Shown here one piece after another: positions 1 to 26,111 of a stretch of DNA of 64,000 nucleotides. Source of the DNA: Limisphaerales bacterium (GTDB lineage: Bacteria > Patescibacteriota > Microgenomatia > UBA1400 > PJMF01); contig JBILGT010000003.1 in assembly GCA_044350895.1 (NCBI GenBank), positions 10,671-74,670 of the forward strand, in the 5' to 3' direction. The notes beneath the pieces were generated by a model. It worked only from the letters and a program-made list of their open reading frames with translations, was not told the origin of the DNA and did not search any database. The position numbers and the translations under genes are program-made. Each line of letters starts with the position of its first letter. Positions within the stretch are counted from its first letter, which is position 1.

Positions 1-1255
1 ATTTTCTGTTTATAACATCCCACAATTCGCGTGAATCACCTTCATAACCCACTGCCCAAATAGCAATGCCACCCAAATCGAGCTGATTAACATAGTCAAG
101 TTTATATGAAATTGAACGGCTGTTTTCGTAATAAATCACATATGTTTTGCCGTCTTCAATATATGATAAGTATGGTGATAGCGCATCTTCATTCCATCGC
201 TCCTGAACTTTGAGCTCCTCTTTTCTGGTCAGCAGATCCGCAACACGAGACATGCTGGCGGTTGCTCCTGTATCTGGAAATGTGTGTGATTGTGCATCAC
301 GGCTAGTGGTTTCCCACTCGTACCCGTAAAAAGGAATTCCAAGTAGTAATTTATGTCGTGGTACTTGGGCTGCAAATTCTTGTAAGTGTTGATTGATGTC
401 ACTATCCCACAGATCTTTGCCACCAAACAGTGGGGCGACTGGTCCAGCAAGTGGTGAAGTGCGGCGGTGAAAGTCATAGGCCATTACTACAATGTAATCA
501 ACATATGGCTCGATTCCTTTGACATCCCAGAGACCTAAGTTATTTGAAGCTCCAGCATACATCGCAATTGAAAGATTGATTTTGTCATAGCGCTTGTCCA
601 TATGTTCCCGCAAGTTCTTCATAAACTTGGTGAGGTTGTTGCGCGTGGCTTCTGTGGGTGAGCCATTCAGTTCAATATCAATATTTATGCCATTTACTGG
701 ATAGGCAAGTATGATGTCATCAAGTGATTCAAAAAGTCTGTCCTGTGCCGTGGGTGAGTTAAGAAACGCAAAAATGTCATCACCATTAAATTGTGAAAGT
801 ACAATTTCCATTGCGCCATCTTGGTTTTTCATCTGGGTTGATAGATCAAGAAATTCATCTGACTTCAAACCAGAATAACCTGGCTCTCCACCCTCGTCAG
901 TACGAGTGATGAGGGTACCATCTCGAGCGATAGCGAGTGCAAAATACGAAAGATGAGTGAGTTCGGGTTGCAGTGTAACTTTTTTGAGATTCCAGTATGG
1001 TAGGTATCCATACACAATTTTTTTGTTCTGATTAAAAATCTCAGCTTCCTGTAAGAATTTGAATGTGGTGAGAGAGTTAATTGGTGAAGCGAGTGGAACA
1101 TCATGAAACCACCACAAGCTGATTGCAGTAGCTGCGACAAAAGTGGTCAGCAAAAGGAGGAAAAATTTTATGGCAAAAAAGGTCTTTTTGAGATTGACTG
1201 AAGGTTGTGTGTGCTGCGGTGGCTTAGAAAATGCGTGCAGAAATTTCTTGAGCAT
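1..1255 (-). CDS. GH18-family glycosyl hydrolase-like protein, N-terminal membrane anchor; partial (C-terminus runs off window start)
   Basis: My own translation of the minus strand from the ATG at 1255 is continuous to position 1. The ORF track omits it because no stop falls inside the window. Starts MLKKFLHAFSKPP..., then a hydrophobic anchor TFFAIKFFLLLLTTFVAATAISLWWF. Has GH18-like motifs: ..VNGINIDIELNG.. (a DxxDxDxE-type block, here N-G-I-N-I-D-I-E) and ..YIVVMAYDFH... The listed ORFs 229..477(-) and 865..1140(-) are out-of-frame internal ORFs. Confidence 0.6.
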   Translation of the reverse strand, partial: MLKKFLHAFSKPPQHTQPSVNLKKTFFAIKFFLLLLTTFVAATAISLWWFHDVPLASPINSLTTFKFLQEAEIFNQNKKIVYGYLPYWNLKKVTLQPELTHLSYFALAIARDGTLITRTDEGGEPGYSGLKSDEFLDLSTQMKNQDGAMEIVLSQFNGDDIFAFLNSPTAQDRLFESLDDIILAYPVNGINIDIELNGSPTEATRNNLTKFMKNLREHMDKRYDKINLSIAMYAGASNNLGLWDVKGIEPYVDYIVVMAYDFHRRTSPLAGPVAPLFGGKDLWDSDINQHLQEFAAQVPRHKLLLGIPFYGYEWETTSRDAQSHTFPDTGATASMSRVADLLTRKEELKVQERWNEDALSPYLSYIEDGKTYVIYYENSRSISYKLDYVNQLDLGGIAIWAVGYEGDSRELWDVINRK

Positions 1256-1263
1256 GGTAACAA

Positions 1264-3684
1264 TTATTCTTGCGTAAATGTTTCAGTTGATTGTGAAGAC
1301 TCATTTGTAATAGTTGTTTGTTCATAGACTGGCTTTCCCTCTTCGTTAACAGGTCGATTGCAGTCAAGACAGTAACTTTTGGTCAACGGATCTTCCAAAA
1401 TTGTGCGTGATTCTAGGACCAGTCCTTCAACTTGCTCACCAAATTTGGGTGGTAAACCAGTGGTGGGATCAATCCAAGTATTGGTTGTCTTTCTGACAGA
1501 TGCTGAAGGTCTGCTGCGCTGCCAGTATAGTTCTGTACCGCCAGCGGTGCACTCATCTTGTCCATTGCCTTTGGGAAAACCACTGGGACAGACAGGTGCT
1601 GAAGCAACATCAGGTGGTTTCTCTTGCCAGCGTGGTTCTTTATCTCTGAGCACATACCGCATGATGTCATTAAAGATAGGCGCAGCGCCCGTCACACCTG
1701 AAACAACTCCGCGGTTCATTGGTTCACTGCTGTTATTACCTACCCATGTTATGACCAAAAATTCTGGAGTGAAGCCCACTGTCCAGTTATCTTTGAGGTC
1801 GTTTGTGGTACCTGTTTTGACACTGACGACTTGGTTGGGGATAACGAGCTCAGACCGAGTGCCAAACGCTGCAGAGCGAGCTGAGTTGTCTTGCATAATA
1901 TGACTGACTAAGTAAGCAGGCGCTCGATCAAGAACACGCTCCAGTTCACCTTCAGCACTGGATTCATATTCAGTTAAATACTGCAAATCTTCTTTGCGCT
2001 GCTTAATATTTGTTTCTTTGAGGACTTTACCTTGATATGTTTCAATTTTTAAAATTGGAGTGACTGGCACTTTCACTCCTTGATTGGCCAGTACTGAGAA
2101 TGCTTGTGCAAGATCAATCATGCGCACTTCACCACCACCAAGACTGATTGAGAGGCCAAACTTTGATGGATCATCCCAGCCAGTAATACCCATTTTCTGT
2201 GCAGTGTCAATAAATGTTGTCAGTCCAACCAGTTTCAAGCTTTTGACGGCAGGAATATTAAATGAATTTCCGAGTGATTGGCGAATTGTCACTGCTCCGT
2301 GGAAACTTCCATCGTAGTTTTTGGGACAGTATGGTTTCTGACCAGCCACTTCAAAACAGGTAGGTGAGTCAATTAAAAGCGTGCCAGGATTGAGTAACTT
2401 TTCTTGAAATGCTGTGGCATATACTAATGGTTTGATCGAAGAACCTGGCTGGCGAGAACGAAGCGTTACATTCACTTGGCCGTCATGCTCAGTATCAAAG
2501 TAGTCACGCGAGCCAATCATCGTAAGAATTTCACCGGTATCTGGTTTAATAATTAAGCTCGCGCCATTTCCAACATTGGCGTTTTTGAGTTTATCAACTT
2601 CTGCAGAAAGTGATGCCTGAGCTGCTTTTTGCAAATCTAGATCAAGTGTTGTCGTGACGCGTAGTCCACCTTTCTCAACCACATCTTCACCAAATTCTTG
2701 ATAGAGCAGATCTCGCACATAAAATACAAAATGAGGTGCTTCAATATCTGTGCGTGAAAGAGCAAATTTTAGTACTTCGTTTTCTGCTTGTTCTTGTTGA
2801 AGCTTAGTAATGTAGCCATCTTCATACATGCGGCGGAGTACATCTTTCTGACGTGCTTTGGCTTGTTCTGGGGTAGACCCAAATGGTGAGTATCGGCTGG
2901 GTGCTTGAGGTAATCCGGCAAGTAGTGCTGCTTCACCAAGTGTCAAATCTTTGGCATGTTTATCAAAGTATGCTTTTGAAGCAGATTCGACGCCCACTGA
3001 CGTTCCACCATATGAAATATAGTTGAGGTACATTTCCAAAATATCTTCTTTGGAATACATAATTTCTGTAAAGACGGAGAGCAGTGCTTCTTTGATCTTA
3101 CGTTTGAGTGATCGCTCGTTGGTGAGGAGTGCGTTTTTGACGAGTTGTTGGGTAATTGTAGATCCACCCTCGAGGCGTTTCCCCGTGAGCGTAGAACGAG
3201 CTGCACGAGCTATTGCAACTACGTCAAACCCAAAATGTTTATAAAAATTCTGATCCTCAATTGAGATACTTGCTTGGTAGACGTAGGGAGGGAGATCTTT
3301 CAATGCAATTGGGACTCGGTTTTCATCAGCAAAAATTTCGTAGAGGAGCGTTCCGTTGCGGTCAAAAATCTGAGTACTGACAGGATAGTTCTCAGTGTTG
3401 GTGAGACGACGTGGTGATGGAAGATCTCGCATTAACAAAATAGTGGCGATTACCAAAGCGCCAAACAGTCCAATCAGAGCAAATCTGAAGAATTTATTAC
3501 GGATGGGAAACAGCAAAATATTTCTAATTTTTGTGCCCTTGTTACGAACATTTTGGAAGACACGACGACGCTTTGCACCAGGCGTGCTTCCACTCAAAAC
3601 TTGGAAAATTTTCTGTGGTGACTTTGGTTTTGTTGGTGTCTTGTTAAATGGTAAGTTATTCATGTATGATGATGCACAGTCCAC
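1264..3684 (-). CDS. ponA: Class A penicillin-binding protein (bifunctional transglycosylase/transpeptidase, PBP1A-type)
   Basis: 806 aa with an N-terminal TM helix. GT51 motifs EDQNFYKHFGFD and GGSTITQQLVKN; transpeptidase motifs SSIKP (SxxK) and KTGTTND (KTG). The C-terminal ~90 aa form a Cys-containing extension. Confidence 0.9.
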   Translation of the reverse strand: MDCASSYMNNLPFNKTPTKPKSPQKIFQVLSGSTPGAKRRRVFQNVRNKGTKIRNILLFPIRNKFFRFALIGLFGALVIATILLMRDLPSPRRLTNTENYPVSTQIFDRNGTLLYEIFADENRVPIALKDLPPYVYQASISIEDQNFYKHFGFDVVAIARAARSTLTGKRLEGGSTITQQLVKNALLTNERSLKRKIKEALLSVFTEIMYSKEDILEMYLNYISYGGTSVGVESASKAYFDKHAKDLTLGEAALLAGLPQAPSRYSPFGSTPEQAKARQKDVLRRMYEDGYITKLQQEQAENEVLKFALSRTDIEAPHFVFYVRDLLYQEFGEDVVEKGGLRVTTTLDLDLQKAAQASLSAEVDKLKNANVGNGASLIIKPDTGEILTMIGSRDYFDTEHDGQVNVTLRSRQPGSSIKPLVYATAFQEKLLNPGTLLIDSPTCFEVAGQKPYCPKNYDGSFHGAVTIRQSLGNSFNIPAVKSLKLVGLTTFIDTAQKMGITGWDDPSKFGLSISLGGGEVRMIDLAQAFSVLANQGVKVPVTPILKIETYQGKVLKETNIKQRKEDLQYLTEYESSAEGELERVLDRAPAYLVSHIMQDNSARSAAFGTRSELVIPNQVVSVKTGTTNDLKDNWTVGFTPEFLVITWVGNNSSEPMNRGVVSGVTGAAPIFNDIMRYVLRDKEPRWQEKPPDVASAPVCPSGFPKGNGQDECTAGGTELYWQRSRPSASVRKTTNTWIDPTTGLPPKFGEQVEGLVLESRTILEDPLTKSYCLDCNRPVNEEGKPVYEQTTITNESSQSTETFTQE

Positions 3685-3712
3685 TAGATGGAAACTACTA
3701 TAGTTTACCAGA

Positions 3713-4234
3713 TTGCTAGAGATTCGTATGCTACATGCCGCACAATTCCCCTGGTTTGAACAACTTGAACAAGATCAGCAAGATCTCATTAAACTCTCAG
3801 AATACTTGTACGAACGCGAAGGTATGTCCCAAGTTCAATTGAGTGATTATGGATTTGTTGTTTTTCCTATTGCAAAAGCATATGAGGGTTTTCTAAAACA
3901 ATATTTATTTGATCTGAGTTTAATTTCCCAACATACCTTTGAAAGCAATAGATTCCGTATTGGACGAGCAATGAATCCAGACATCCGTGAAAATCAACAA
4001 GATGAGTTTTGGCTCTATGATGATTTGGAGCAGATGTGTGGAGCCACAGTTGCAAAAGATTTATGGAATACATGGTTATTATGTCGAAATCGTGTTGTGC
4101 ACTTTTTCCCGCTTGAAACGCATCGCATACCTTTGAAAACTGCTGGTGAGAAAATTGAGATGGTTCTTAATACCATTGATATGGCCTATCAGTGCAAAGT
4201 TGAACTGAAACTTGAGCCTGCTTCTGTTGTGTAA
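3713..4234 (+). CDS. Hypothetical protein, possible HEPN-like fold (Rx4HxF motif)
   Basis: 173-aa ORF with no other recognisable domain. It contains CRNRVVHFF, which fits the HEPN Rx4-6H signature at the usual C-proximal position. No MNT partner gene is adjacent. Confidence 0.45.
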   Translation: MLEIRMLHAAQFPWFEQLEQDQQDLIKLSEYLYEREGMSQVQLSDYGFVVFPIAKAYEGFLKQYLFDLSLISQHTFESNRFRIGRAMNPDIRENQQDEFWLYDDLEQMCGATVAKDLWNTWLLCRNRVVHFFPLETHRIPLKTAGEKIEMVLNTIDMAYQCKVELKLEPASVV

Positions 4235-4249
4235 TTTATTTCAAATTTC

Positions 4250-7200
4250 TTATCTAAAGTTCACCGCGCCGCCGTTATAGAGGTCTTTGACCTGGGCGGG
4301 GGTGAGGGCGTAGTTGTAGATGCGGACGTCGTCGATCTGGCCTGAAGAATAGAAAGTTGATGAGGTAGAGGTCCCTAATCGACCAATTGAAAAGCCTGAA
4401 GCAGTACCAGAGTTTTGTACTGTTTGAGCAACAGTATTTATTAATCTTCCATCTTTATAGTATTTAATACTGCTACCATCTACAGTGGCAGTTATGTGTG
4501 TCCAATTAGTAGAAGGGAATCCTGTGGAGTTCCAATCTGAAGCGACAACAGCTTGTTGTCCACTTATTCCATCAGATGTCCATATTTCTACTGCATCACC
4601 ACTATCTCTAAAAATCATCCCCCAAATAGAAATATTTCCTCCATTACTTGCAGATTCTGCGATAGCGGAACTGCCCCAATTAGAGGGTTTAATCCAGAAT
4701 GACAATGAGTAATTACTAGGTTTACCTAAAAAAGTTCCTAAATTAAGATAGTCATCTGTATCATCAAACTCCAGACTACTATTAAACTTGCCACTTGCAC
4801 CATCTTTCCAGGCTTCACCCGTGCTACCTTTACAACTGCCAGCAGTAGTGTTGGATCCAGAAGCTCCGATAGTGATTGTGCCGTTATTGCCGGCTGCTTC
4901 GCCATTGCTGTTAAGTGCTGAGTTGTAGGCAGTAGTACCCTGACATTCATCAAGTTTGTAGTGGGCAACGGGACCACCTCGGTTGTACTCCCAAGCCACT
5001 TGGGCTGGAGTGCGGGCGTAGTTGTAAATTCTCATGTTGTCTACCATGCCGCCAAAGTAATTTGAGGCACTGGAGCCTTCTCGGCCGATAGCAAGGATGT
5101 TGGCTGTAGAGTTGAGTGAGCCAGTTACTGAGGAAGCTGTGCCGCGTAGAATGCCGTTTGTGTAGAATTTAAGGGTGTTGGCAGTGGCGTCACGGACTAC
5201 TGTGAGCTGGTCCCAGCGTGAAGTACTTGGGGTTGTGGTGGTATCGGTAACAGAATATGTAGTGCTACCACTATACACAAATGCTTGCCATTGATTTGCA
5301 GCACTCAAGCGCATGCCGTACTGGCGAGAGGTTGTCGCTGAGGTGTTACCTTTACCCATAATGAGGCGTGCTGTTGAGTCCACAGCATTTGGTTTTACCC
5401 AAGTACTAATGGTGAGGTCTCCGGTAATATTGAGCGAACTGCTGTCGGCAACACTGACATATGAGTTGGATGGTGAGAGATTTACTCCGCTACCAGTTTT
5501 ACCAGTGGTCCAAGTGGGGCCATTGGTCAGTGTGCCCGTGTTGTTATTGCCACTAGTGTCGTTTGCTGTTGTCCCGGTGTTTTCATCAAACTTCCATTCG
5601 GCAACCGGCGGATTGCAGGTTGCGGTATCGCCGGGCACACAATATTCTCGACTGGATGAGTTGTCAGGAGTAGTTCCATTGGAGGCGGTGGAAGTGGCTC
5701 CCAATTGCACAGCAGCACCGCGGTTGTATTCTAGGCGGATGTCGTCTTCAGTGAGGGCGTAGTTGTAGATTTTGACTTCGTCGATGAGGCCGTGCATATA
5801 ATATTCTGTGCCTACAGTAGTTGTGCCGATACGTGTTATATCGGTACTGGCAATACTACCGCTTACCAATGTTGAAGATACCAGTTTATTATTTATATAT
5901 AATCTTGCTGTTGAACCATCCCATGTTCCAACAATGTGATACCATGTGTCGGTTGTCAGATTATCAATGTTGTATATGGGTACATTCGACCATGCAGTCA
6001 TAGCATCGGGAAGCATAAATGCCAGCTGAGACCGATCATTTACATCACCATATACATATAGAAAATACCCACTATCATTTCTTACTAAAATTCGAGCAGT
6101 ATTCGTATTGTCCGATGGAAAAGAGCTAAACTTTGCCCACGTAGAAATGCTTATAGAACTTGCGGGTATGATGCTACTATTGTTTCCTACGCTCACATAA
6201 TCATTCGTTCCATCAAATGCCAGTGCCTTGCCAAACTTGCCAGCACTGCTCCAACCGCTGGTACTTGTGGCAGGGGCGGCCATGTTGGTCAGTGTCCCAT
6301 CGTTGTTTTGTGGACTAGAATCTTGAGCTGTTGTGCCATAACCATCATCAAATCCTAGATGCAGTACGGGATTTCCCACACTGCCACCCACCGCTGGTTC
6401 ATAGCCCTCGCGCCCATTCATCACATTTACGATTTGTTTTTGAGAGAGAGCGTAGTTATAGATGCGGACGTCGTCGATTGCACCATTAAGATACCAATTG
6501 TTATCACTTCTAGCTCCTAGACTTATGTTTGCACTAGATTCGTTTCCTAATGTGAGACTGCCACTGCCAACCTGTAAGCCATTAATAAATATTGTTACTG
6601 TACTACCTGTATAGGTAAACGCGACATGCGTCCATTGCCCAGTAGAGATTGTTTGATTGGAACAAATGCTACTAGTCCCGTTATATACATAGACCTTACC
6701 AGTTGAACCACTTCCGCAGACTTCTGCATCGGTGTAAGTACCATTTACTCCAAAAGCCCATCCAACTGTCCCAGTGTATTTTGATATCATGTAATTTACA
6801 AATTGGTGAGAATAACTAGTAGGGTTGACCCATAAACTCACAGTCTTTGTACTAAGATTATCAATATTAGTTTGACTACCTCCATTAATATAATCATCAC
6901 TCCCATCAAACTTCACACCACTACCAAACTTACCTGGTGCCCAAGTAGGGCCGTTGGTGAGAGTACCCGTATTGCTGTTACTACTGGCGTCAGCAGCAGA
7001 TGTTCCAGTGTTTTCGTCAAGTTTCCAGTGTGCCACAGGCCCTGGGGCATAGTTGTAGAGATCTTGAACTTCATCAGGAGAGAGAGCGCGGTTGTAGATG
7101 CGGACTTCGTCGAGGGAGCCAGCATAGGGGTTCAAGTTTGCTCCATAATCTCCTAAATAAAAGCTAGATGAAGTACCTATAGAGCCACTTGTACTTCCAA

Positions 7201-10200
7201 TTGTAGAGTCAAGTTGTCCATTGAGATATATTTTTTTGGTTGAGCCGTCATATACTGCAGTTACTAAATACCAATTCTGCGTAGTTAGTGCTGTGTTATT
7301 TTTAAGCAGGGAGCCCCCCCAGTTTTCGCCAGTTAAAAAGCGGATTTTACTATCGGTATCAATGTCAAGTTTGAAGATACTTTCATTGGCAATGAAGGCT
7401 TTACGTGTAGTTCCCAATGCACTCGGTTTTATCCAAGCTGCAATGGTGATTTTGTCCGAAAATGTGCCCAGACCGTTACTATCCACCACATAATCCCCAG
7501 TCCCATCCAAGCTCACGCCATTCCCAAACTTTCCACTGCCAGTTGTGGCATCACCATTCCAAGCTCCGTCGTTACCATTGCCTGACTTATCACAGGTATC
7601 GTTAGTGCCATTGGAGCAAGTATTGGCAGCAGCTTCATCCATTGGGTAGTAGGCCACCAGGCCTTGGTTTAGCTTTTCAAGTGTGCCATCGCCTAGCTGG
7701 GCACTCGCTCCTTCAGAAGTACCTTTTGCAGTGTAATCAAGCGTGATTTGTTGGGCAGTGCGCTCGTAGTTGTACAGCCTGACTTCATCAATAAAGCCGT
7801 GGAAGTTGGCGCTGCTAGAACCTCCCAGCAACCAGTCATTGCCATCGCTGGCAGGAGCGCCACTGCCGTTACTAGATGTACCGCGCAGTTTACCGTCTAT
7901 GTACACGGAGATCTCATCATCACTATCATCTGTGTATGCTAGTGCCACGTGGTGCCACTCATTGAGTGGCAAGCCATTGGTGATCGTGACCGTGGCATCA
8001 CTGCTGGCCAAATCAAGTGAGGCCTCCAAATCCACCAGCCGATCACTGCCTTCATTAGTGGTACGCAGATAGGTGCTATCTCCTTTAGATACAATCTGAC
8101 CAACGTTTGTTTCACCATCAGAGCTGACTTTTACCCAGCCAGCAAAACTGACTCCAGCTGCTAGACCTTGATCTAAATCAAGCGCAGTGGTGTTGGTGAT
8201 ACTGACACTATTATCTGAGCCATTGAACTCCAAACAGTTATTGGAGTAACAACTCTCACTGGTGCGGCGAGTGGGGGTGGAGGTGGGTGGTGAACCTGCT
8301 TGCACTATCAGATCAGCAGATGAAACAGTAGTAGTATTGGTACTAGAATTTTTAATTTGTGCATCGATGTTTTTGGCAGCCACTGGCATGGTGAGGGCAT
8401 TTGAACGTTGGCGAGAATAGGAAGCGCCTGTTGTACTGACTTCAGAACTCGAAACGGCTGTTACATCACTGCTGTTATAGAGCTGCGCGTAGCCAGTGCC
8501 GGCACTTGTCTTGATATCAGATTCAAAGTAGTAATTTGTCGAGCCAGAAAAAAGTGCCGGGTCAAAGTAGTTTAAGCCGTTTTGAGAGGTGTAGGCAGTG
8601 TCAACATCAGTCTGTGCGGTATTAACCAAGTTGTACACCAATTCAGTCCCATAAATCGTGCCACTTTGATCAAGCACAGCTCGAGCGTTGGCAATCTGCG
8701 CGGTGTTGGCTGTAGTCTTAATACAAACCATGTAGTCAGTATCATCATTCAAGGTAACGGCACTACTACGTACTCGAGTCCAGGTGGTACCTGTCACCGT
8801 CACTTCAGAACCACTAACCACAGTCGTGCAACTTGCGCCATCACTATAGAGTGCCACTGAAGTAGTCTGTCCTGCAGTGCTGTTTGAAATTGTAGCTTCA
8901 AAATAAGTAGTGGGGGTTGGAGTAAATTTGTTGGCATCATATCTATAGATTTTTTTATTGGTGAGTTGTGTATACGAAGTTGCGGTACTGGTTTCGTAGT
9001 TTCCCACTTCTACTTGGGTTTGGGTGGCACTGAGAGCACCACTTTGACTAACAATCATACGTGCTGCTCGGACATCTGCTGTAATGTTAAGAGAGTCAGT
9101 GGAAGCAAGCCGAATACCATAGGCGGTAGCAGTTGTGGGGGAGATAGCTGGGGTACGCAGCCTACTGTAACTACTGGATCGGGTAGTTATGATGCCATCA
9201 GGCACTGCTGCTCCAGAGGAAGAAACCAATTGCGCCCAGACTCGATCTGCCCCATCATCGGCTAGATTAGTAGTTCCGGAAGCGCAGGTGCCGTTATTAC
9301 AATCGGCAAAATAAATATCACCATTATCTGTTTCATGGTAGGCTACTTTGCAGTCATTGAGGCCAGCTTTGCAATCCAATGAAAAAACAATTTCAAAAGT
9401 ATTAGTAGTACTGCACCCAGTCAAAGCACAACCATTTGTGCCATCTAGGACAGTAGTGGTACCGCTGGTGCATGCTGCATTATCACAGTCAGCAAAACTA
9501 AAGTCATAGCTCCGGTAATACGCAACTTTACAGTTACTGCCATCACCACCACAGGCGATAGTAGGGCTGTCGGCAAAGACTGAGGTAGAACAGTTGGTCA
9601 GTGCACAACCCGCAGAACCCTCGAGCTGGCTTATAGTGCCGCTGGTACAGGTGGCATTGTTACAGTCCACAAAGTTGAGATCACCACCGGTACTATTGTA
9701 GTACGCAATTTTGCAATCACTGGCACCTGGGGAACAATCTATGGTAGTACCAGTACCACTACTCGTGGAAGTGCTACAGCCAGTGAGGAGGCAGCCAGTG
9801 TCACCTTCTAAAATACTAGCGGTACCACTGGTACAAGCTGCGTTATCGCAGTCAGCAAACCGGAGTGACGTGCGCGTGTTGTCATAATAGGCAATCTTAC
9901 AATCAGTGGCAGTAGGACAACTCAAAGCAGCATTAATACCAACATCATTGGTGGTGCTACAGCCAGTCAGGGCACAGCCAGTGGTGCCATCGACAACCGT
10001 CCTGGTCCCGGAACTACAGGTGGCAGTGTCACAGTCCGCAAATAATAGATCATCGGTAGTCTCATTTTTGTAGGCAATTTTGCAGTCCGCGGTCCCGGCT
10101 GAACAGTCAATATTAGGATGAGTCCCCACCGTTGCAGATGTCGTACAGCCAGTCAGTGGGCAACTAGCTCCACCGTCAATCATGCGCGTGGTGCCGACGT

Positions 10201-11413
10201 TACAGGTGGCACTATCACAATCTGCAAAGTACAAGTCGTCTGTACTGCCGTCCACATAGTAGGCTATTTTGCAGTCGTTGACTCCAGTAGAACAATCAAG
10301 GGCCACATAGCCACCAGCGTCGGCAGTAGTAACACAGCCAGTCAGTGTACAGCCATCTTTGCCATCTAAGTAGACAAGCGTCCCTGTGCTGCATGTTGCA
10401 TTATCACAATCATAAAAGACCAGTGCTGATTCAGTAGTGTCGTAGTAGGCGATTTTACAGTCACTTGATCCACCAGTACAGTCAACATCAGTGTAATAAC
10501 CCACAACACTTTTAAGTGCGCCATCGCCATCAATAGTTTGTTGCGTTCCACTATTGCAGGTGGCACTATCGCAGTCTGCAAAGGTTAAGTCTGCAAGATC
10601 ATCATTTTGATAAACAAATTTACAATCGGTAGCAGACAGACACTTCATCTCAGCATAGTGTCCAGTTGAAGCAGTTGTAGAACAGCCAGTCAAGCCACAG
10701 CCGGTATTACCGTCAACTAAGGTGATAGAACCACTGCTACAGGTGGCATTGCTGCAGTCTGCAAAACGCAGGTCATCGGTGGTGGTGCGGAAGAAGCCAA
10801 TTTTGCAGTCGGTACTGCCACCAATACAATCCACAATGATATATCCACCACTGCTGCCAGAAGTGATGCAACCAGTTAAGGCACAACCTGCGTTACCCTC
10901 TATGAGTGTGGTGGTCCCAGAGCTACAGGTGGCGGTATCACAATCAGCAAAGTATAGGTCGCTGTCTGTTGAGTTATAGTACCCAATTTTACAGTCATCA
11001 CTAGCAGTACAGTACAAGCTGGCATTTGCCCCTACCACATCAGTGGTACTGCAGCCGGTAAGCGGACAGCTGGCCGCTCCGTCTACGGTTGTTACACTTC
11101 CGCTAGTACAGGCAGCATTATTGCAGTCAGCAAAAATCAAGTCATCGGCAGTGTCGTTGAAGTACGCAAGTTTGCAGTCGGTGGCTGTGACACAAAAAAG
11201 ACTAGTATAGGAAGCAGTGCTAATCCCAGTATTACAGCCAGTCAGGACACAGCCAGAACCACCATCCAGTTGTGTCAATGTTCCAGAACTACAAGTGGCA
11301 GTATCACAGTCTACAAAAAATACATCTGGCGTTGATGCGATTGGTCGTAATCCACTCGCTAGTAAAGCAATTATTTTTAGCATCATGATGAATACAGTAC
11401 TCAGTATTGGCAT
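4250..11413 (-). CDS. Giant secreted/surface protein: signal peptide, ~11 tandem 6-Cys ~61-aa repeats, Ser/Thr-rich linker, 6 LamG (concanavalin A-like lectin, Laminin_G_3-type) domains
   Basis: 2387 aa. The N-terminus MMLKIIALLASGLRPIAS is signal-peptide like, so the true start is probably the ATG pair near 11386/11383. Aa ~33-712 hold repeats of the form FADCxxATCSSGTxTxxDGxxGCxLTGCxT...DCxxGxxDCKIAYYxxTxDDLxFADC. Six motifs of the IDEVRIYNYAL(T/S)xxQ(I/V)xxLYN type are typical of LamG / Laminin_G_3 domains. Confidence 0.85.
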   Translation of the reverse strand: MPILSTVFIMMLKIIALLASGLRPIASTPDVFFVDCDTATCSSGTLTQLDGGSGCVLTGCNTGISTASYTSLFCVTATDCKLAYFNDTADDLIFADCNNAACTSGSVTTVDGAASCPLTGCSTTDVVGANASLYCTASDDCKIGYYNSTDSDLYFADCDTATCSSGTTTLIEGNAGCALTGCITSGSSGGYIIVDCIGGSTDCKIGFFRTTTDDLRFADCSNATCSSGSITLVDGNTGCGLTGCSTTASTGHYAEMKCLSATDCKFVYQNDDLADLTFADCDSATCNSGTQQTIDGDGALKSVVGYYTDVDCTGGSSDCKIAYYDTTESALVFYDCDNATCSTGTLVYLDGKDGCTLTGCVTTADAGGYVALDCSTGVNDCKIAYYVDGSTDDLYFADCDSATCNVGTTRMIDGGASCPLTGCTTSATVGTHPNIDCSAGTADCKIAYKNETTDDLLFADCDTATCSSGTRTVVDGTTGCALTGCSTTNDVGINAALSCPTATDCKIAYYDNTRTSLRFADCDNAACTSGTASILEGDTGCLLTGCSTSTSSGTGTTIDCSPGASDCKIAYYNSTGGDLNFVDCNNATCTSGTISQLEGSAGCALTNCSTSVFADSPTIACGGDGSNCKVAYYRSYDFSFADCDNAACTSGTTTVLDGTNGCALTGCSTTNTFEIVFSLDCKAGLNDCKVAYHETDNGDIYFADCNNGTCASGTTNLADDGADRVWAQLVSSSGAAVPDGIITTRSSSYSRLRTPAISPTTATAYGIRLASTDSLNITADVRAARMIVSQSGALSATQTQVEVGNYETSTATSYTQLTNKKIYRYDANKFTPTPTTYFEATISNSTAGQTTSVALYSDGASCTTVVSGSEVTVTGTTWTRVRSSAVTLNDDTDYMVCIKTTANTAQIANARAVLDQSGTIYGTELVYNLVNTAQTDVDTAYTSQNGLNYFDPALFSGSTNYYFESDIKTSAGTGYAQLYNSSDVTAVSSSEVSTTGASYSRQRSNALTMPVAAKNIDAQIKNSSTNTTTVSSADLIVQAGSPPTSTPTRRTSESCYSNNCLEFNGSDNSVSITNTTALDLDQGLAAGVSFAGWVKVSSDGETNVGQIVSKGDSTYLRTTNEGSDRLVDLEASLDLASSDATVTITNGLPLNEWHHVALAYTDDSDDEISVYIDGKLRGTSSNGSGAPASDGNDWLLGGSSSANFHGFIDEVRLYNYERTAQQITLDYTAKGTSEGASAQLGDGTLEKLNQGLVAYYPMDEAAANTCSNGTNDTCDKSGNGNDGAWNGDATTGSGKFGNGVSLDGTGDYVVDSNGLGTFSDKITIAAWIKPSALGTTRKAFIANESIFKLDIDTDSKIRFLTGENWGGSLLKNNTALTTQNWYLVTAVYDGSTKKIYLNGQLDSTIGSTSGSIGTSSSFYLGDYGANLNPYAGSLDEVRIYNRALSPDEVQDLYNYAPGPVAHWKLDENTGTSAADASSNSNTGTLTNGPTWAPGKFGSGVKFDGSDDYINGGSQTNIDNLSTKTVSLWVNPTSYSHQFVNYMISKYTGTVGWAFGVNGTYTDAEVCGSGSTGKVYVYNGTSSICSNQTISTGQWTHVAFTYTGSTVTIFINGLQVGSGSLTLGNESSANISLGARSDNNWYLNGAIDDVRIYNYALSQKQIVNVMNGREGYEPAVGGSVGNPVLHLGFDDGYGTTAQDSSPQNNDGTLTNMAAPATSTSGWSSAGKFGKALAFDGTNDYVSVGNNSSIIPASSISISTWAKFSSFPSDNTNTARILVRNDSGYFLYVYGDVNDRSQLAFMLPDAMTAWSNVPIYNIDNLTTDTWYHIVGTWDGSTARLYINNKLVSSTLVSGSIASTDITRIGTTTVGTEYYMHGLIDEVKIYNYALTEDDIRLEYNRGAAVQLGATSTASNGTTPDNSSSREYCVPGDTATCNPPVAEWKFDENTGTTANDTSGNNNTGTLTNGPTWTTGKTGSGVNLSPSNSYVSVADSSSLNITGDLTISTWVKPNAVDSTARLIMGKGNTSATTSRQYGMRLSAANQWQAFVYSGSTTYSVTDTTTTPSTSRWDQLTVVRDATANTLKFYTNGILRGTASSVTGSLNSTANILAIGREGSSASNYFGGMVDNMRIYNYARTPAQVAWEYNRGGPVAHYKLDECQGTTAYNSALNSNGEAAGNNGTITIGASGSNTTAGSCKGSTGEAWKDGASGKFNSSLEFDDTDDYLNLGTFLGKPSNYSLSFWIKPSNWGSSAIAESASNGGNISIWGMIFRDSGDAVEIWTSDGISGQQAVVASDWNSTGFPSTNWTHITATVDGSSIKYYKDGRLINTVAQTVQNSGTASGFSIGRLGTSTSSTFYSSGQIDDVRIYNYALTPAQVKDLYNGGAVNFR
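9278..11317 (-). repeat. Coding tandem repeat array (~11-12 units of ~183 bp) encoding the 6-Cys repeat module of the giant protein
   Basis: The protein periodicity (FADC...DCKIAYY every ~61 aa) maps to these coordinates. Unit boundaries are approximate. Confidence 0.6.
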
Positions 11414-11473
11414 TGTGGGTATGGGCTTAGCAGCCGCCTACTTTATAAGTACTGTGTAACTTGAAAGGTACCT

Positions 11474-14808: not shown

Positions 14809-16224
14809 ATGGCAACAACAAACGGACGAATTATCAGTGTGACACAGCATGTTGCTGAAGTTGAATTTCTTGATGAACAACCACAGATTCATGAAAAACT
14901 TACTTTGGCAGAGGATGAGTGTGCAGTTTTGGAAGTCTATTCCAGTTCAAGAACTGGTAGCTTTTACTGTTTGGTTCTTCGCTCAAGTCAACACTTGATC
15001 CGTGGGGCGGTTGTCGTCACAACTGGCCAGATGCTACGAATTCCGGTGGGTGAGTCAGTTCTGGGAAGAGTATTCAATGTATTTGGTGAACCGTTGGATG
15101 AAAAGGGAAGCCTAGGTAAGAAAACGGTTCCTATTTTTGAATACACACCAGCCACCTTGGATGATGTGGCGATCCCCAAACAAATTCTCGAAACAGGCAT
15201 CAAAGCAGTCGATTTTTTTGCTCCGATTTTTCATGGCGGCAAGATGGGATTATTTGGAGGTGCGGGCTTGGGAAAAACAGTTATTTTGACTGAATTAATT
15301 AATAATATTGTTATCCGGCAGGGAAGTGAAAAAAATGATAAAAAATCTAAAACAGGGAAATCTGCAGAGCGCTACTCTGTTTTTGCTGCTGTTGGTGAGC
15401 GCTCTCGTGAAGTTCAAGAATTGATTGAAAATCTTGATCAAGCCAAAGCACTTGAAAAAACCAGTGTGATTGTAGGACAGATGGGTGAAAATCCAGCAGT
15501 ACGTTTTCAAACTGCTTTTGCAGCGGTGCGCGTTGCCGAATACTTACGCGATAGCATGAACTCTGACGTTCTCTTTTTTATGGATAATGTCTATCGTTTC
15601 AGTCAGGCTGGGTATGAACTTTCCACGCTGATGAATAATATTCCATCAGAAGACGGGTATCAGCCGAGTCTGCCTTCAGAAATTTCTCAGCTCCAATCAC
15701 GTCTGTATTCAAATACTCAAAACTCTATTACCAGTATTGAAACTGTGTATCTGCCATCAGATGACCTCACTGATTTGGCAGTACGGTCGCAGTTCCCATA
15801 TCTTGATGCAATGGTTGTGTTTTCTCGCGATATTTACCAGCAGGGTCGGTTGCCTGCTATTGATTTACTTGCATCAACATCAAATGCTCTGTCACCTGAT
15901 TTCGTCGGTGAAGAGCACTACACAGTGTACTTGGAAGCCAAAAAACTACTTGAACGTGCCATCAGTATTGAACGACTGGTGAGTATGGTGGGTCTTTCAG
16001 ATTTATCAGCAGCAGATCAAAAAATTTACAAGCGTTCACAGCTACTTAAAAATTATATGAGTCAAAGTTTCTTTGTGATTTCAGTTCAAACTGGTCGACC
16101 AGGGACATTTGTACCAAGAGCGACGTGTGTGCAAGATGTTGCGAAAATTCTCAGTGGTGCGTTTGACACGCTTAATGAAGAAAAGCTGCTTCATGGTGGA
16201 AGTCTGCAAGAGATGAACCTATGA
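14809..16224 (+). CDS. atpD: F-type ATP synthase subunit beta (with a ~15-aa insertion after the P-loop region)
   Basis: 471 aa with GGAGLGKTVILTELINNI. The canonical beta sequence continues directly to SVF(A/G)GVGER, but here VIRQGSEKNDKKSKTGKSAERY is inserted first. Confidence 0.95.
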   Translation: MATTNGRIISVTQHVAEVEFLDEQPQIHEKLTLAEDECAVLEVYSSSRTGSFYCLVLRSSQHLIRGAVVVTTGQMLRIPVGESVLGRVFNVFGEPLDEKGSLGKKTVPIFEYTPATLDDVAIPKQILETGIKAVDFFAPIFHGGKMGLFGGAGLGKTVILTELINNIVIRQGSEKNDKKSKTGKSAERYSVFAAVGERSREVQELIENLDQAKALEKTSVIVGQMGENPAVRFQTAFAAVRVAEYLRDSMNSDVLFFMDNVYRFSQAGYELSTLMNNIPSEDGYQPSLPSEISQLQSRLYSNTQNSITSIETVYLPSDDLTDLAVRSQFPYLDAMVVFSRDIYQQGRLPAIDLLASTSNALSPDFVGEEHYTVYLEAKKLLERAISIERLVSMVGLSDLSAADQKIYKRSQLLKNYMSQSFFVISVQTGRPGTFVPRATCVQDVAKILSGAFDTLNEEKLLHGGSLQEMNL

Positions 16225-16530
16225 GGGCTTGGTGGTTTTTACACCAAGATACACTTCAACTCGATATTGAAAACAGTGCAGTACACCACCATCAACCGCA
16301 AACTCTTTTTTTTCGCCACTTGCTAGATGTAGTATGATTTTTTCCTTGATAAGTGTTATGAAGTTGGTGTGTTCTGCCAAAATATCAAAAGGACCCTGAT
16401 CATTTACTGAGGAAAGTGATGCTGCAACATCATTAAAAATGATACCTTTTTCATCATGTATTAAAACATCAAATGAGGTTTGATCGGGTGTTATGTTTTT
16501 TATTGGCACGATGAAATTTGTATTTGGCAA
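16219..16530 (-). CDS. atpC: F-type ATP synthase subunit epsilon (N-terminal beta-sandwich domain only), encoded inverted relative to atpD
   Basis: 103 aa. It matches the epsilon pattern ..IVPIKNITPD..F..GPFDILAEHTNFITLIKEKIILHL..KEFAVDGGVLHCF.., and the C-terminal helical hairpin is absent. The start codon is TTG at 16530 or GTG at 16509. Its TAG stop (top 16219-16221, read as CTA) is the last sense codon of atpD. Confidence 0.65.
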   Translation of the reverse strand: MPNTNFIVPIKNITPDQTSFDVLIHDEKGIIFNDVAASLSSVNDQGPFDILAEHTNFITLIKEKIILHLASGEKKEFAVDGGVLHCFQYRVEVYLGVKTTKPS

Positions 16531-17439: not shown

Positions 17440-18420
17440 GAATGATTTTTTAAATCTTCTAAAAAAAGCTGTTATGCCCGTGATAGTAAAACCTGAAACA
17501 TCGGCAACTCCGAGTTCCGATAATTATAACGGAAAACAAATTCGTTCAAGTAAAACTGCAAATACTTCTTTGAAACAGCGTGGTGAGTCCCAGAAATAGA
17601 ACGCTTAACCTGACTCCAAAATCCCTCAATTGTGTTTGTGTGTACATTTCCACGCACGTATTCTTTGATTCCATGCTGGATAACTTCATGTAAGTAACCG
17701 TCTTTTTCTACACGGTTATAGACTGGAAATTCATCTGTCATAACTGCACTACCTAAAGTAACATTCTCTCTCAAAATTGGAATAACAGTGGCAGACTTAA
17801 CATTGTCTACATGTTTAGCACGAACACTGCCACCACGTTGTACTACTCCAACTACTGCTGCTTTATCAGTACCACGACCTCTTTTACCGCCTCTACGTGA
17901 GCCGCCTATATATGTTTCGTCTGCCTCAACAGTACCACTTAAAGGATCTTTACCTTGTGTCATTAAACTTCTGATCTGATGTGTCATACGCCATGCACAT
18001 TTATAAGTAACACCTAATTGGCGTTGCACTTCTTTAGCACTTACACCATTACGAGCAGATGCAAATAAAAACAGTGCATGAAACCATAGAGTGAGTGGTG
18101 TACTACTCTTATGAAAGATCGTTCCTGCTGTAGGGTGTAATTGAAAACCACAATGTGAACAGGAATAACACTTACGTGTACTTACTCTGTAAAAACTATT
18201 CTCAGCCTTACATTCTGGACAAATAGGATCAGGAAAACGCATAGCAAAGATATACGCAATACACGCATCATCGTTAGGAAAATCTTTGAGTAAATCAGCT
18301 ATGGTATACTTAGCTTGCTTGGCTTTCATGACCATTATTATAGCATTTATTTACATGTTGTAAAGGGATACTTGCCTTGTATTTTTACTAGTACTACTAT
18401 ACCTGAGATACAACATGCTC
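17440..18420. mobile_element. IS1595-family insertion sequence (boundaries approximate; terminal inverted repeats not resolved by eye)
   Basis: A transposase gene flanked by short non-coding stretches. It lies within or adjacent to an AT-rich island (16531-18520). I could not confidently identify the IRs or target-site duplication. Confidence 0.4.
17472..18335 (-). CDS. IS1595-family (ISXO2-like) transposase with N-terminal zinc-ribbon
   Basis: 287 aa. Cys cluster CPECKAENSFYRV...CYSCSHCGFQ, then an ISXO2-like DDE region ..VEADETYIGG.. and ..HTNTIEGFWSQVKRSISGTHHAVSKKYLQFYLNEFVFRYNYR. Confidence 0.85.
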   Translation of the reverse strand: MVMKAKQAKYTIADLLKDFPNDDACIAYIFAMRFPDPICPECKAENSFYRVSTRKCYSCSHCGFQLHPTAGTIFHKSSTPLTLWFHALFLFASARNGVSAKEVQRQLGVTYKCAWRMTHQIRSLMTQGKDPLSGTVEADETYIGGSRRGGKRGRGTDKAAVVGVVQRGGSVRAKHVDNVKSATVIPILRENVTLGSAVMTDEFPVYNRVEKDGYLHEVIQHGIKEYVRGNVHTNTIEGFWSQVKRSISGTHHAVSKKYLQFYLNEFVFRYNYRNSELPMFQVLLSRA

Positions 18421-23405: not shown

Positions 23406-26111
23406 ATGTCAGAAACACCACAACCACAGCAAGAAGCATTACCTCAACAAGAAAGTAAGTCATTGGAAGAAGCTCGAAAACTGATGGCTCATGTTGCAAG
23501 TGAATTAAGTCAAGCCAATGCTGAAGTAGAAGCAGGAAAATTTGCAGAAGCAAAAGCTCGTTTAGAGAAAGTAGATAAACATTATACTGAAGAAGATAAA
23601 AAACTAGAGCCTGGAGTGATGGATACTCAGGAGATGAAAGCTGCCTACGACGCAAATGTTAGATTATTTAGAGCCCTAAACGGTAGAGTCAATAAAGGCT
23701 TGGCAGCAGCTACTGAACAAGCTCCACAACAACCTATAGCTAATGAAGCCCCTAGTCCAGATGCAACTATTGCCACCGAAACAGTAAACACTGACGCTCC
23801 CGCTACTGATGGCGAGGTAATTGAGGGAGTAGTAACAGGTGCAGAGCCAGCTAATTCAGTTACCACTGATCAAGTTGCTACTCAAAATGGAACGACAGGT
23901 GATAGGCCAGGAGGCTCTACATTAGACGAGATCAGAGCAGACAATGATGTGATATTCGGAGATGGAGCGGGCGATAAAATGGTCGCCGAATTGCAAGCTC
24001 AAATTAATGCGGATCAAGCCCAAGGTGATGGAGCAGCTTCACAAACTACTGAGGCCCCAGTCGCCGATGTTATTACAGAATCACCGGTAGCTGATGCGAT
24101 CCCAGCTGCACCAACAACAGATACGACACAACCTGCGGAATCAGCAACTCCTGGAGCTGTTGCTAACGCCGCTGAAGCCCCAGCCGTAAACCCAGAACGA
24201 GCAGCATTGCAAGCTCGCGTGACTGAAAGAGTCCAAGGCACTTTAAATAGAATCAACGACAGATTTAATAACTTACCAGCGGATCAACGCGCAACTTTAG
24301 AGCAAGTAATGGTAACCGACATGATGCTCCGTATGGACAGGCTTCACGCAACTGGTCGTCCTGTAACCACAGGTGACGAGCGCATGAATATCATGGCAGC
24401 AATAATGGGTACATTGCATGATAGGAACTTGATTCCTGGTCAACAGTTAAATTGGCTGGGTAACGATGCCTTTAGTAGTTTGATGGATCAGACCATGAAT
24501 GGATATTATGGTAGAAATACCTTCAATACAGGAGATGTATATACAGATGGTAGAATGCAATATAGGGGTGGACGTATGATAGAACGCGCAGGAGCACAAC
24601 ACACGCCAACAACTCAACCAACAGAATCGGCGACTCCGGCGTCGAATCAAGAACAACGGCCAGCAGGACAGGTAGTAGAACAAACAACTGCACAACCTGA
24701 ACGGAATGGTCGTATAAGAGGATTTGTTCGAGGAATTCAAGACTGGTGGGCAAGAACAGGCAATGGCGCTCCAGCAGCTGAAGTACTACCTGCAATTGCA
24801 CCTACTACAGCAAGAACAGCTGAAGCTCCCTCTGTTGCTCCAGCAGCCGCAGAAGCAGGCGCTACAACAACCCCAGCGCCTACTGAAGCCGCCACAGCTA
24901 CTGCAGCACCTGTAGCAACAGAATCAAACCCAGCTACTGATGTAGCTGAAACAAATATAGGTGAACTCACCGCAGAACAAATTGCAGAAGCCATTGCTAA
25001 AAACTCTGCAAATCGTACGGGTGAAAATGATGAACGAAAAGATGATGGAACACCACCACCTCCAGAAGCCCCAGCTCCAGCAGCAATGCTGGCTCGGTTG
25101 CATGAAGTTGAAGGTGCTATAAAAGAAATGCCAGCAGATACTATTGAAGGCATTTCTGATGAACAGCTGGAACAGCTGGCTGAAGCAGCTGACATCCTAT
25201 TTACTCTAGATCATGATGAAGCGTTTCAAGCAGATGCAACTCAAGAGAATTTTGCATTGATGGATGCAATTACTCAGTTGATTCGTCAAGCATATGAACA
25301 TCAAATGGATTATTTAGCTCAAGAACAAGATCATACATATGATCAGAGATGTGAAAGGATTGCTCTCTTAGTTGAAATGACAGCACCTGCAATGCAACCT
25401 GAATTGGCAGATAGCGGTGATGCTGATCAAATGGATAGATTCATCCAACAAATTATTAATGAAAAAATTGGTCCGCGCCCACGTGCCGCGCGGCAGAACA
25501 AAGATCGTGCAGAGTGGCGTGAAAAAGTACGGGAAGTCAGAGTACGACGACTTGATTCTCAACAAGCACAACGTGAAGGAGAATTAAAAGGAAAAACCAA
25601 AGAATATATAATTCGTAAAGCAATGGAAGCTGTTGATGCAATTGATAATGCAGCTGTAATTGTTCGCACACTCGATATCCGAACACAAAGAGTTCTTGAA
25701 AATCTTGAGGCTCGACTTGAGACGCGTCTTGATGAATTAGCCGCTAGTGGTATTGAGTTTACCAATCAGCTTGCAGGAGCAGGAGATCAGCTTACTGAAG
25801 GGCTACTCGTTCTAGGTGCAGATGTGAGCACAGTAGTAGAACAATTCATATTTGTTGATGCAGGAGAAATCTGGGACAAAAAGTGGGATCAAAGCAAGCG
25901 TTGGTTGGGAACTCCAGTACGTTTTGCAGCAGAGAAAGTTAAGGAATTCAGAGCAAACAGACGCCAAAAATTAGAAAAAGCAGAACAAAAGAAAGCTGAA
26001 AACAGAGCTGTAGCACGATCTAATTACCAGACTATAAATACCGAACGCCGCCGCAGAGCTGAAACACCAGGAGCAGTAAGAACACAATTACAAAGATTGC
26101 GTGATCAATAA
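23406..26111 (+). CDS. Large low-complexity (Ala/Thr/Pro/Gln/Glu-rich) hypothetical protein
   Basis: 901 aa with no signal peptide or TM. There are extensive compositionally biased stretches and no recognisable catalytic motif. Confidence 0.6.
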   Translation: MSETPQPQQEALPQQESKSLEEARKLMAHVASELSQANAEVEAGKFAEAKARLEKVDKHYTEEDKKLEPGVMDTQEMKAAYDANVRLFRALNGRVNKGLAAATEQAPQQPIANEAPSPDATIATETVNTDAPATDGEVIEGVVTGAEPANSVTTDQVATQNGTTGDRPGGSTLDEIRADNDVIFGDGAGDKMVAELQAQINADQAQGDGAASQTTEAPVADVITESPVADAIPAAPTTDTTQPAESATPGAVANAAEAPAVNPERAALQARVTERVQGTLNRINDRFNNLPADQRATLEQVMVTDMMLRMDRLHATGRPVTTGDERMNIMAAIMGTLHDRNLIPGQQLNWLGNDAFSSLMDQTMNGYYGRNTFNTGDVYTDGRMQYRGGRMIERAGAQHTPTTQPTESATPASNQEQRPAGQVVEQTTAQPERNGRIRGFVRGIQDWWARTGNGAPAAEVLPAIAPTTARTAEAPSVAPAAAEAGATTTPAPTEAATATAAPVATESNPATDVAETNIGELTAEQIAEAIAKNSANRTGENDERKDDGTPPPPEAPAPAAMLARLHEVEGAIKEMPADTIEGISDEQLEQLAEAADILFTLDHDEAFQADATQENFALMDAITQLIRQAYEHQMDYLAQEQDHTYDQRCERIALLVEMTAPAMQPELADSGDADQMDRFIQQIINEKIGPRPRAARQNKDRAEWREKVREVRVRRLDSQQAQREGELKGKTKEYIIRKAMEAVDAIDNAAVIVRTLDIRTQRVLENLEARLETRLDELAASGIEFTNQLAGAGDQLTEGLLVLGADVSTVVEQFIFVDAGEIWDKKWDQSKRWLGTPVRFAAEKVKEFRANRRQKLEKAEQKKAENRAVARSNYQTINTERRRRAETPGAVRTQLQRLRDQ

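Follow-up and report, generated by a model that had tools for sequence, protein, structure and literature searches.

The leading candidates for host attachment in the ultra-small bacteria of the candidate phyla radiation (CPR) are giant surface proteins, large parts of which are unannotated. Among the described systems, strain-specific multi-LamG surface proteins are known from DPANN episymbionts (nanohaloarchaea), where a function in carbohydrate or host recognition was predicted (PMC10266531). Here we analyzed a stretch of 64,000 nt (the window) from contig JBILGT010000003.1 (assembly GCA_044350895.1, positions 10,671 to 74,670 of the forward strand), which belongs to a bacterium deposited as Limisphaerales and placed by GTDB in the Microgenomatia. 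The minus strand at window positions 4250-11413 was found to carry an uninterrupted open reading frame (ORF) of 2387 codons plus stop. We favor, with moderate confidence, the reading that the product of this gene, in a Microgenomates/Woesebacteria-like CPR bacterium, is a large multi-domain binding protein that is probably extracellular. A Microgenomates-group host is probable because a ribonucleotide reductase from the window falls into a cluster at ≥90% identity with a protein of Woesebacteria. In the proposed scheme, a Cys-rich β-propeller together with β-sandwich domains probably forms a rigid, oxidation-stabilised scaffold or an auxiliary carbohydrate-binding platform, and ligand recognition, with exchangeable specificity, would probably fall to the six divergent LamG domains. 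The nanohaloarchaeal proteins differ in being archaeal and in having no Cys-propeller, and nothing indicates that they are related to the window protein outside the LamG superfamily.

The giant ORF, already proposed by an earlier model-made reading of the letters (the sequence-only reading), is real and intact in three assemblies. The JGI contig L001 (3300044974) covered the entire gene with 100% identity and no gaps, its single mismatch lying outside the gene. The Logan contig L002 (SRR27425440) was 100% identical from window position 6297 onward, including the entire repeat array, and L003 was likewise 100% identical over the part that it covers. These three contigs come from different read sets; the source samples are JGI 3300044974 and 3300059473 and run SRR27425440.

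A total of 78 Cys residues were detected in the protein, 66 of them within aa 33-722; the 12 Cys outside the repeats likewise group with their nearest neighbours in sequence into six pairs. When the protein was cut at each recurrence of F-x-D-C, 11 full units of 55-63 aa were obtained (first residues at aa 33, 94, 155, 217, 278, 333, 396, 458, 519, 581 and 640), with a partial 12th unit at aa 702. The unit consensus is FADCDNATCxSGTxTxxDGxxGCxLTGCSTxxxxGxxxxxDCxxGxxDCKIAYYxxTxxDLx. Six Cys in a fixed register were present in 10 of the 11 full units, while unit 5 has four and is without the GCxLTGC loop. The invariant positions other than Cys are F, D, A, G and K, which are present in every blade. 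The units share 35-57% protein identity (mean 49%) and a mean DNA identity of 56% (maximum 63%), and Tandem Repeats Finder reported nothing over the repeat region because they are too diverged. The sequence-only reading had described about 11 near-identical 6-Cys units of ~61 aa; the number and approximate length were correct, the six Cys do not extend to unit 5, and "near-identical" does not describe units with these identities.

No credible match to aa 1-720 or aa 721-1040 was obtained in Pfam or NCBIfam. For aa 1-720 no Pfam family appeared at E ≤ 10, and the full protein matched only LamG-region families at E ≤ 1. The only Pfam matches for this part came from a two-unit test peptide and stayed well under their thresholds (Peptidase_M76 at E = 0.019, with 15 bits where 25 are required). 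The repeat matched none of the named Pfam propeller repeat families (Kelch, WD40, BNR, NHL, PQQ, FG-GAP, RCC1 and others), and none of 22 scanned relatives had a Pfam match over the repeat. PDB sequence and profile searches with the repeat and the mid region gave no credible match, and no description of the 6-Cys repeat was found in the literature. The sequence-only reading had been unable to assign the repeat and had allowed that it might match an already described family; at the sequence level the repeat stays outside the Pfam and NCBIfam models and is without a sequence relative in PDB.

Structures were predicted with AlphaFold2 (AF2) from shallow alignments of 20-22 sequences. Model 2 (aa 296-1045; mean predicted local distance difference test score, pLDDT, 86.6; predicted template modelling score 0.73) displayed exactly seven groups of four strands over aa 304-719 (pLDDT 85-96), which were predicted to form seven four-stranded antiparallel sheets in a ring, that is, a seven-bladed β-propeller. 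Because of these seven groups, each ~61-aa unit is predicted to be one four-stranded blade (A-B-C-D), and the disulfide-rich fold for which the sequence-only reading proposed to look is, on this prediction, a blade of a known fold. Residues 33-295 would then represent 4.5 blades of a second, N-terminal propeller, which is complete with seven blades in double-propeller relatives. Model 1 (aa 26-730) reached pLDDT >90 for aa ~65-260 and closed one ring from blades of both propellers, with units 5 and 9-11 at low confidence; we attribute this mixed ring to the incompleteness of the first propeller and regard it as an artefact, and the model was replaced by model 2.

The Cys residues are spaced as three CX4-6C pairs per unit, and each pair has its own place in the predicted blade. 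C5-C6 bracket the A-B hairpin loop (C5 ends strand A, C6 precedes strand B), C1-C2 bracket the C-D hairpin loop (C1 ends strand C, C2 precedes strand D), and C3-C4 sit in the link from strand D to strand A of the next blade. C3 and C4 are jointly absent from unit 5 and from 4-Cys relatives, and 2-Cys relatives retain C1-C2 only. The forms found in the family are C1-C2 alone, C1-C2 plus C5-C6, or all three pairs. Among 463 near-full units from 105 family proteins, four Cys were present in 279, six in 175 and an odd number in only seven. Paired gain and loss and even Cys counts are the pattern expected of local disulfides, and we therefore infer that each blade is most likely held by three local disulfide staples, C1-C2, C3-C4 and C5-C6.

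A unit-profile search (alignment A2) recovered 90 clusters at E ≤ 0.001 among 1.84 billion representative proteins. The Cys-propeller family is rare, and its members are mostly giant surface proteins of CPR bacteria. The named sources included Curtissbacteria, Woesebacteria and Spechtbacterales, Cys-poorer forms occurred in Anaerolineales and Caldilinea and on archaeal-type pilins, and some source metagenome-assembled genomes were labelled Gammaproteobacteria. The repeat is thus not diagnostic of one lineage, contrary to what the sequence-only reading had proposed. The fusion partners were pilin N-termini (P0012 with N_methyl; P0046, named type II secretion system protein), GT2 polysaccharide synthases with the module on the outside-facing end, LamG arrays, DUF2341, CBM96, FN3, PKD, MG2 and Peptidase_M23. 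Every one of these contexts is of extracellular type, and an extracellular binding role of the window protein is plausible. The blade assignment yields a usable profile for these ~90 clusters, the pilin and GT2 fusions included.

The number of repeat stretches per protein peaked at 7-8 and 14-15, which corresponds to one seven-bladed propeller, or to two split by a shorter 4-Cys junction unit. These counts were based on hidden Markov models (HMMs), which replaced a regular-expression counting that needed manual merging. Two metagenomic relatives come close to the window architecture. P0036 (3031 aa) has the same module order, with Cys-propellers, three β-sandwich domains and a LamG array with conserved linkers. 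P0037 (2371 aa) shares 7+7 Cys-propellers and LamG arrays, its LamG domains standing on both sides of the propellers. Unlike the window protein, both P0036 and P0037 have an N-terminal transmembrane segment, DUF2341 and 7+7 blades; P0036 also retains the N-terminal half of the first sandwich, and the window protein is without all of these N-terminal parts. The genes of P0036 and P0037 (loci L031 and L032) were located within tandem arrays of DUF2341/LamG genes encoding 2000-3400 aa, which may be paralogous giant-gene clusters. Another set of relatives (P0043, P0045, P0047, P0049, P0050, P0052, P0058, P0059 and others) combines in a single polypeptide an N-terminal transposase-like helix-turn-helix, a GT2 cellulose-synthase-like membrane domain, a BNR-like region and a 4-Cys propeller, and ends in a C-terminus of the type 'PE...hydrophobic...KRRR' that resembles a sorting or anchor signal.

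Between the propeller and the LamG array, aa 723-1040 contain two homologous domains of ~120 aa after a half-copy, about 2.5 domains in all (Table 1). The Ser plus Thr content of this region was 30%, compared with 23-25% elsewhere in the protein; the glycosylated Ser/Thr-rich stalk expected by the sequence-only reading is not present, and AF2 predicted all-β domains instead. In P0032-P0038 the N-terminal half of the first sandwich (motif IEQQINIxDQ...YFEA) precedes the propellers. When this half was joined to the C-terminal one, the two aligned collinearly to a full domain (z = 4.4-4.8), and other relatives have an intact sandwich domain and no propeller. Since the split halves rejoin collinearly and propeller-free intact domains exist, the alignments indicate that in the sandwich-bearing sub-family the single or double propeller is an insertion nested in a loop of the first of three β-sandwich domains. 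The sandwich domain, for which Pfam holds no model, is now recognisable in these and other relatives. It was also observed in other metagenomic proteins with an uninterrupted first copy (L020, L021, L025, L026 and L027) and constitutes an independent family without a Pfam match in any protein scanned.

Six stretches of Laminin_G_3 (PF13385) were detected at aa ~1041-2383 (492 bits against a cutoff of 27.6, E = 3.3e-149), confirming the six LamG/concanavalin-like domains of the sequence-only reading. The six domains are mutually 21-35% identical. The LamG region also matched the TafC family fimbrial protein model (NCBIfam NF052521) at E = 2.9e-63; however, its 214 bits are well below the curated cutoff of 410, and this match, which derives from the six repeated LamG stretches only, does not place the protein in that family.

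An ortholog from a different species, on the syntenic contig L016 (JGI 3300043099, Ga0453941_0000217), aligned with its positions 1-6645 to window positions 4250-10909. The flanking PBP1A gene displayed ~73% DNA identity to the window, the sandwich region 87-92% and the propeller 98.4-100%. LamG1 and LamG2 were 96-97% identical at the protein level, while the cores of LamG3-LamG6 were replaced (19-39% aa identity) between linkers that were 98-100% identical. These identities make the repeat array the most conserved part and the LamG cores the variable one. The sequence-only reading had regarded the repeat as the rapidly evolving part, and the comparison shifts this focus to the LamG3-LamG6 cassettes, which probably determine specificity. 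The distal four LamG cores were probably swapped as cassettes between related genomes, via recombination at the conserved linkers. Silent LamG cassettes were looked for elsewhere in the window and none was found. The codon differences between the window gene and L016 were 101 synonymous and 19 nonsynonymous, with a synonymous excess that includes aa 169-256. This excess indicates purifying selection at the codon level and, together with the intact ORF, disfavours a long-dead gene. In L016 a nucleotidyltransferase/HepT toxin-antitoxin pair is inserted beside the gene.

Table 1. Window coordinates of the features of the giant gene and of the ORF overlapping its 5' end.
Feature	Residues (aa)	Window position	Strand	Basis
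Whole ORF, 2387 aa plus stop	1-2387	4250..11413	-	Identical in L001 (entire gene) and L002 (window 6297 onward)
Hydrophobic N-terminus (aa 2-21): signal peptide/anchor or fortuitous reading	1-32	11318..11413	-	Kyte-Doolittle 11-aa mean up to 2.7; antisense to 54-aa ORF
Incomplete first propeller: 4 blades after a leading C-D hairpin (units 1-4 and strands C-D of unit 5)	33-295	10529..11317	-	Blade count compared with 7+7 relatives
Complete 7-bladed, putatively Cys-stapled β-propeller (junction unit 5 to partial unit 12)	296-722	9248..10528	-	
Orphan C-terminal half of β-sandwich domain A	723-796	9026..9247	-	Homologous to second half of domain B, z = 5.4; pLDDT 76-82
β-sandwich domain B	797-922	8648..9025	-	All-β, pLDDT 85-96; homologous to domain C, z = 8.0; no Pfam match
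β-sandwich domain C	923-1040	8294..8647	-	Internal homology, AF2
LamG1 and LamG2	1041-1457	7043..8293	-	Pfam Laminin_G_3; 96-97% identical to P0039
LamG3-LamG6	1458-2387	4250..7042	-	Pfam; cores 19-39%, linkers 98-100% identical to P0039
54-aa ORF in expected atpE slot		11295..11459	+	Overlaps codons 1-40 of the giant ORF antisense; called as gene by JGI

Several observations weigh against an extracellular binding protein as proposed. The structures are predictions from alignments of the shallow depth given above, and part of the mosaic seen with L016 could reflect chimeric assembly of the metagenome, given that the L016 contig stops within the identical stretch. A hydrophobic h-region is present at aa 2-21, with a possible cleavage between IAS and T. 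However, the N-terminus is atypical. A basic n-region is missing when translation begins at M1, the hydrophobic segment is antisense to a called ORF, and the JGI gene caller placed the start at V194, upstream of which in-frame repeats extend. No promoter-like site was detected upstream on the minus strand, in a promoter and terminator scan whose counts were at chance level overall. A Shine-Dalgarno-like motif occurs in just 12 of 37 genes, so its absence from the giant gene is uninformative. The C-terminus (...DLYNGGAVNFR) has no LPXTG-like motif or C-terminal anchor and does not indicate sortase anchoring. Finally, 2.5 blades and half a sandwich that are kept by all close relatives are absent, and therefore part of the protein may not fold.

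Unit 5 is the junction unit; it is followed by exactly seven blades, as in the relatives, and preceded by only 4.5. Blades and junction unit are present in the window protein, and it departs from the family norm of 7 or 7+7 blades with a 4-Cys junction and, in the sandwich-bearing sub-family, with propellers between sandwich halves. The N-terminal sandwich half, DUF2341 and the transmembrane region are all absent. From the 4.5+7 blades and the absent sandwich half we regard the window protein as a truncated member of the family; its gene is probably 5'-truncated, and the "signal peptide" is doubtful. This probable truncation matters before this copy is expressed or used as a lineage marker.

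The alternative with the best standing, possible although we think it unlikely, goes further and regards the gene as a recently 5'-truncated relic. A single deletion would have removed the native start, the anchor, the N-terminal half of sandwich A and 2.5 blades, together with the intergenic region, atpB and the 5' half of atpE. The "signal peptide" would be a fortuitous antisense reading of an atpE remnant, and the protein would be poorly or not expressed, or not exported. Apart from the blade and sandwich deficit, this is suggested by the atp operon, which starts at atpF, with no atpB signature found in the 64-kb window, and by the 54-aa ORF in the atpE slot, which ends 14 nt before atpF. 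Among 672 six-frame segments scored with a crude c-subunit HMM this ORF ranked first, it aligned collinearly with the spinach c subunit (z = 3.3), and the start of the c-like homology (~11334) abuts that of the repeat homology (~11326). The calls made by JGI, a 54-aa gene and a giant gene starting at V194, also agree with it, as does an IS1595 transposase at 17472-18335. However, the c-subunit score of 9.5 bits is at noise level, unrelated loci reaching up to 10 bits. The 54-aa ORF has an RNP loop and one hydrophobic helix, and neither helix 1 nor an acidic residue in helix 2. It gave no match to Pfam ATP-synt_C, and a search of 5.8 billion proteins returned only the query itself and no homologues. 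The likeness to an ATPase c subunit is thus weak, and the atpE remnant is kept as a lead.

The gene itself also argues against a relic. The 7.2-kb ORF is intact in three assemblies, and the synonymous excess relative to L016 reaches into the N-terminal part, though a recent deletion could be younger than most of these differences. A signal peptide placed directly before the propeller exists in the family (P0001 and P0041). A single deletion truncating both divergent units would be an attractive explanation, because the blade and sandwich deficit meets the ORF in the atpE slot without an atpB signature in the window. Neither the P0036 locus nor the P0037 locus shows synteny with the window, the L016 contig stops within the array, and a metagenome scan for this deletion recovered only relatives of 35-58% identity. 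Near these genes, the IS1595-family transposase (DDE_Tnp_IS1595, E = 3.7e-44, minus strand) lies just downstream of the ATP synthase operon and is a possible source of local rearrangement. The ATP synthase epsilon gene (ATP-synt_DE_N, 16219-16509, minus strand; taken from L001 13356-13646) is on the strand opposite to atpFHAGD, which is an unusual layout.

It is improbable that the propeller, instead of serving as a binding scaffold, is catalytic and acts on envelope polysaccharide, for example as a glycoside hydrolase, a lyase or an enzyme like CylK. Foldseek against PDB gave only generic propeller-plus-sandwich matches (E ~1e-8), headed by sialidases with a propeller and a β-sandwich and including glycoside hydrolase and polysaccharide lyase propellers (5mum, 7esk and 5uam), which would suit catalysis. 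So would the many relatives fused to GT2 polysaccharide synthases or Peptidase_M23, and the 2-Cys relative P0029, which scores 39 bits on BNR_4 (PF15892; cutoff 27.3). However, identity to all structural matches was 6-15%. The link to BNR/sialidase is transitive only, since P0029 is matched by the N-terminus of the window protein at E = 3.6e-5 and the window protein itself gives no BNR match. No Asp-box (S-x-D-x-G-x-x-W, regular expression) is present in aa 1-1040. Sialidase-type propellers are six-bladed, whereas the window propeller is predicted to have seven blades. With the C-terminal β-propeller of CylK (PDB 7ron) the identity is 10%, and nothing was found that points to a common active site; CylK, a Friedel-Crafts alkylating enzyme, carries an N-terminal domain of its own. 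The blades are near-equivalent repeats, and invariants such as F, D, A, G and K that recur in every blade are typical of structural residues and not of a single active site.

Slightly less probable still is that the CX4-6C pairs are Zn or Fe ligands and the array is metal-binding or redox-active. The CX4C-type spacings of six Cys per unit would allow this, and some relatives have weak Pfam matches to Cys-rich zinc-finger models, such as P0014 to zf-C3HC4_IRF-2BP1_2 (29.4 bits, cutoff 26, with no single stretch passing alone). However, the 2-, 4- and 6-Cys forms show that one pair can come or go without the others, whereas a tetrahedral site needs three or four ligands at once. The three pairs flank different loops of the β-blade, conserved His or Asp co-ligands are absent, and the fusion contexts are all extracellular. 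That the array is an assembly artefact of a collapsed or expanded shorter gene, an error that the sequence-only reading had considered and to which repeat arrays are prone, and although the L016 contig breaks within the array, is hardly credible, because independent contigs from different read sets, together spanning gene and array, are identical over their covered parts, and the units, at no more than 63% DNA identity, escape Tandem Repeats Finder.

Three other proteins of the window are largely unannotated. An acidic, Ala/Thr/Glu/Gln-rich low-complexity protein of 901 aa (23406-26111, plus strand) has no Pfam match and lies in the stretch with the highest AT-skew of the window (0.24). A protein of 1004 aa (26492-29506, plus strand) has only a C-terminal PP2C phosphatase domain, and one of 985 aa (59016-61973, minus strand) has a VIT domain; the large N-terminal part of each is unannotated.

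Among known propellers, the PLL, BP39L and CV39L seven-bladed propeller lectins (PDB 5c9o, 6gxr and 6gxs) are similar in fold and share only 7-12% identity with the window propeller. These lectins are stand-alone proteins, while the window propeller is embedded in a 2387-aa multi-domain protein, and to our knowledge PLL-type lectins are without three CX4-6C pairs per blade; the likeness shown is one of fold. The β-propeller fold is thus known, and the sequence family, the triple staples and the nested architecture are not described in the libraries and literature searched. Export, binding of glycans or of a host, and a role of cassette exchange are what we infer for the protein, and its host recognition would be analogous to that of the strain-specific multi-LamG proteins of DPANN archaea (PMC10266531). 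A bolder interpretation, which we hold tentatively and consider rather unlikely, sees the locus as a host-recognition gene under active recombination in an episymbiotic CPR bacterium. A near-invariant Cys-stapled propeller would be shared, or would recently have been transferred, between species with housekeeping flanks of only ~73% identity, and the LamG cassettes, swapped at the linkers, would set the host range. If so, the sandwich-nested Cys-propeller would be an extracellular module that has not been described before and is typical of giant CPR proteins, and the swapping of LamG cores would be much like the exchange of phage receptor-binding proteins.

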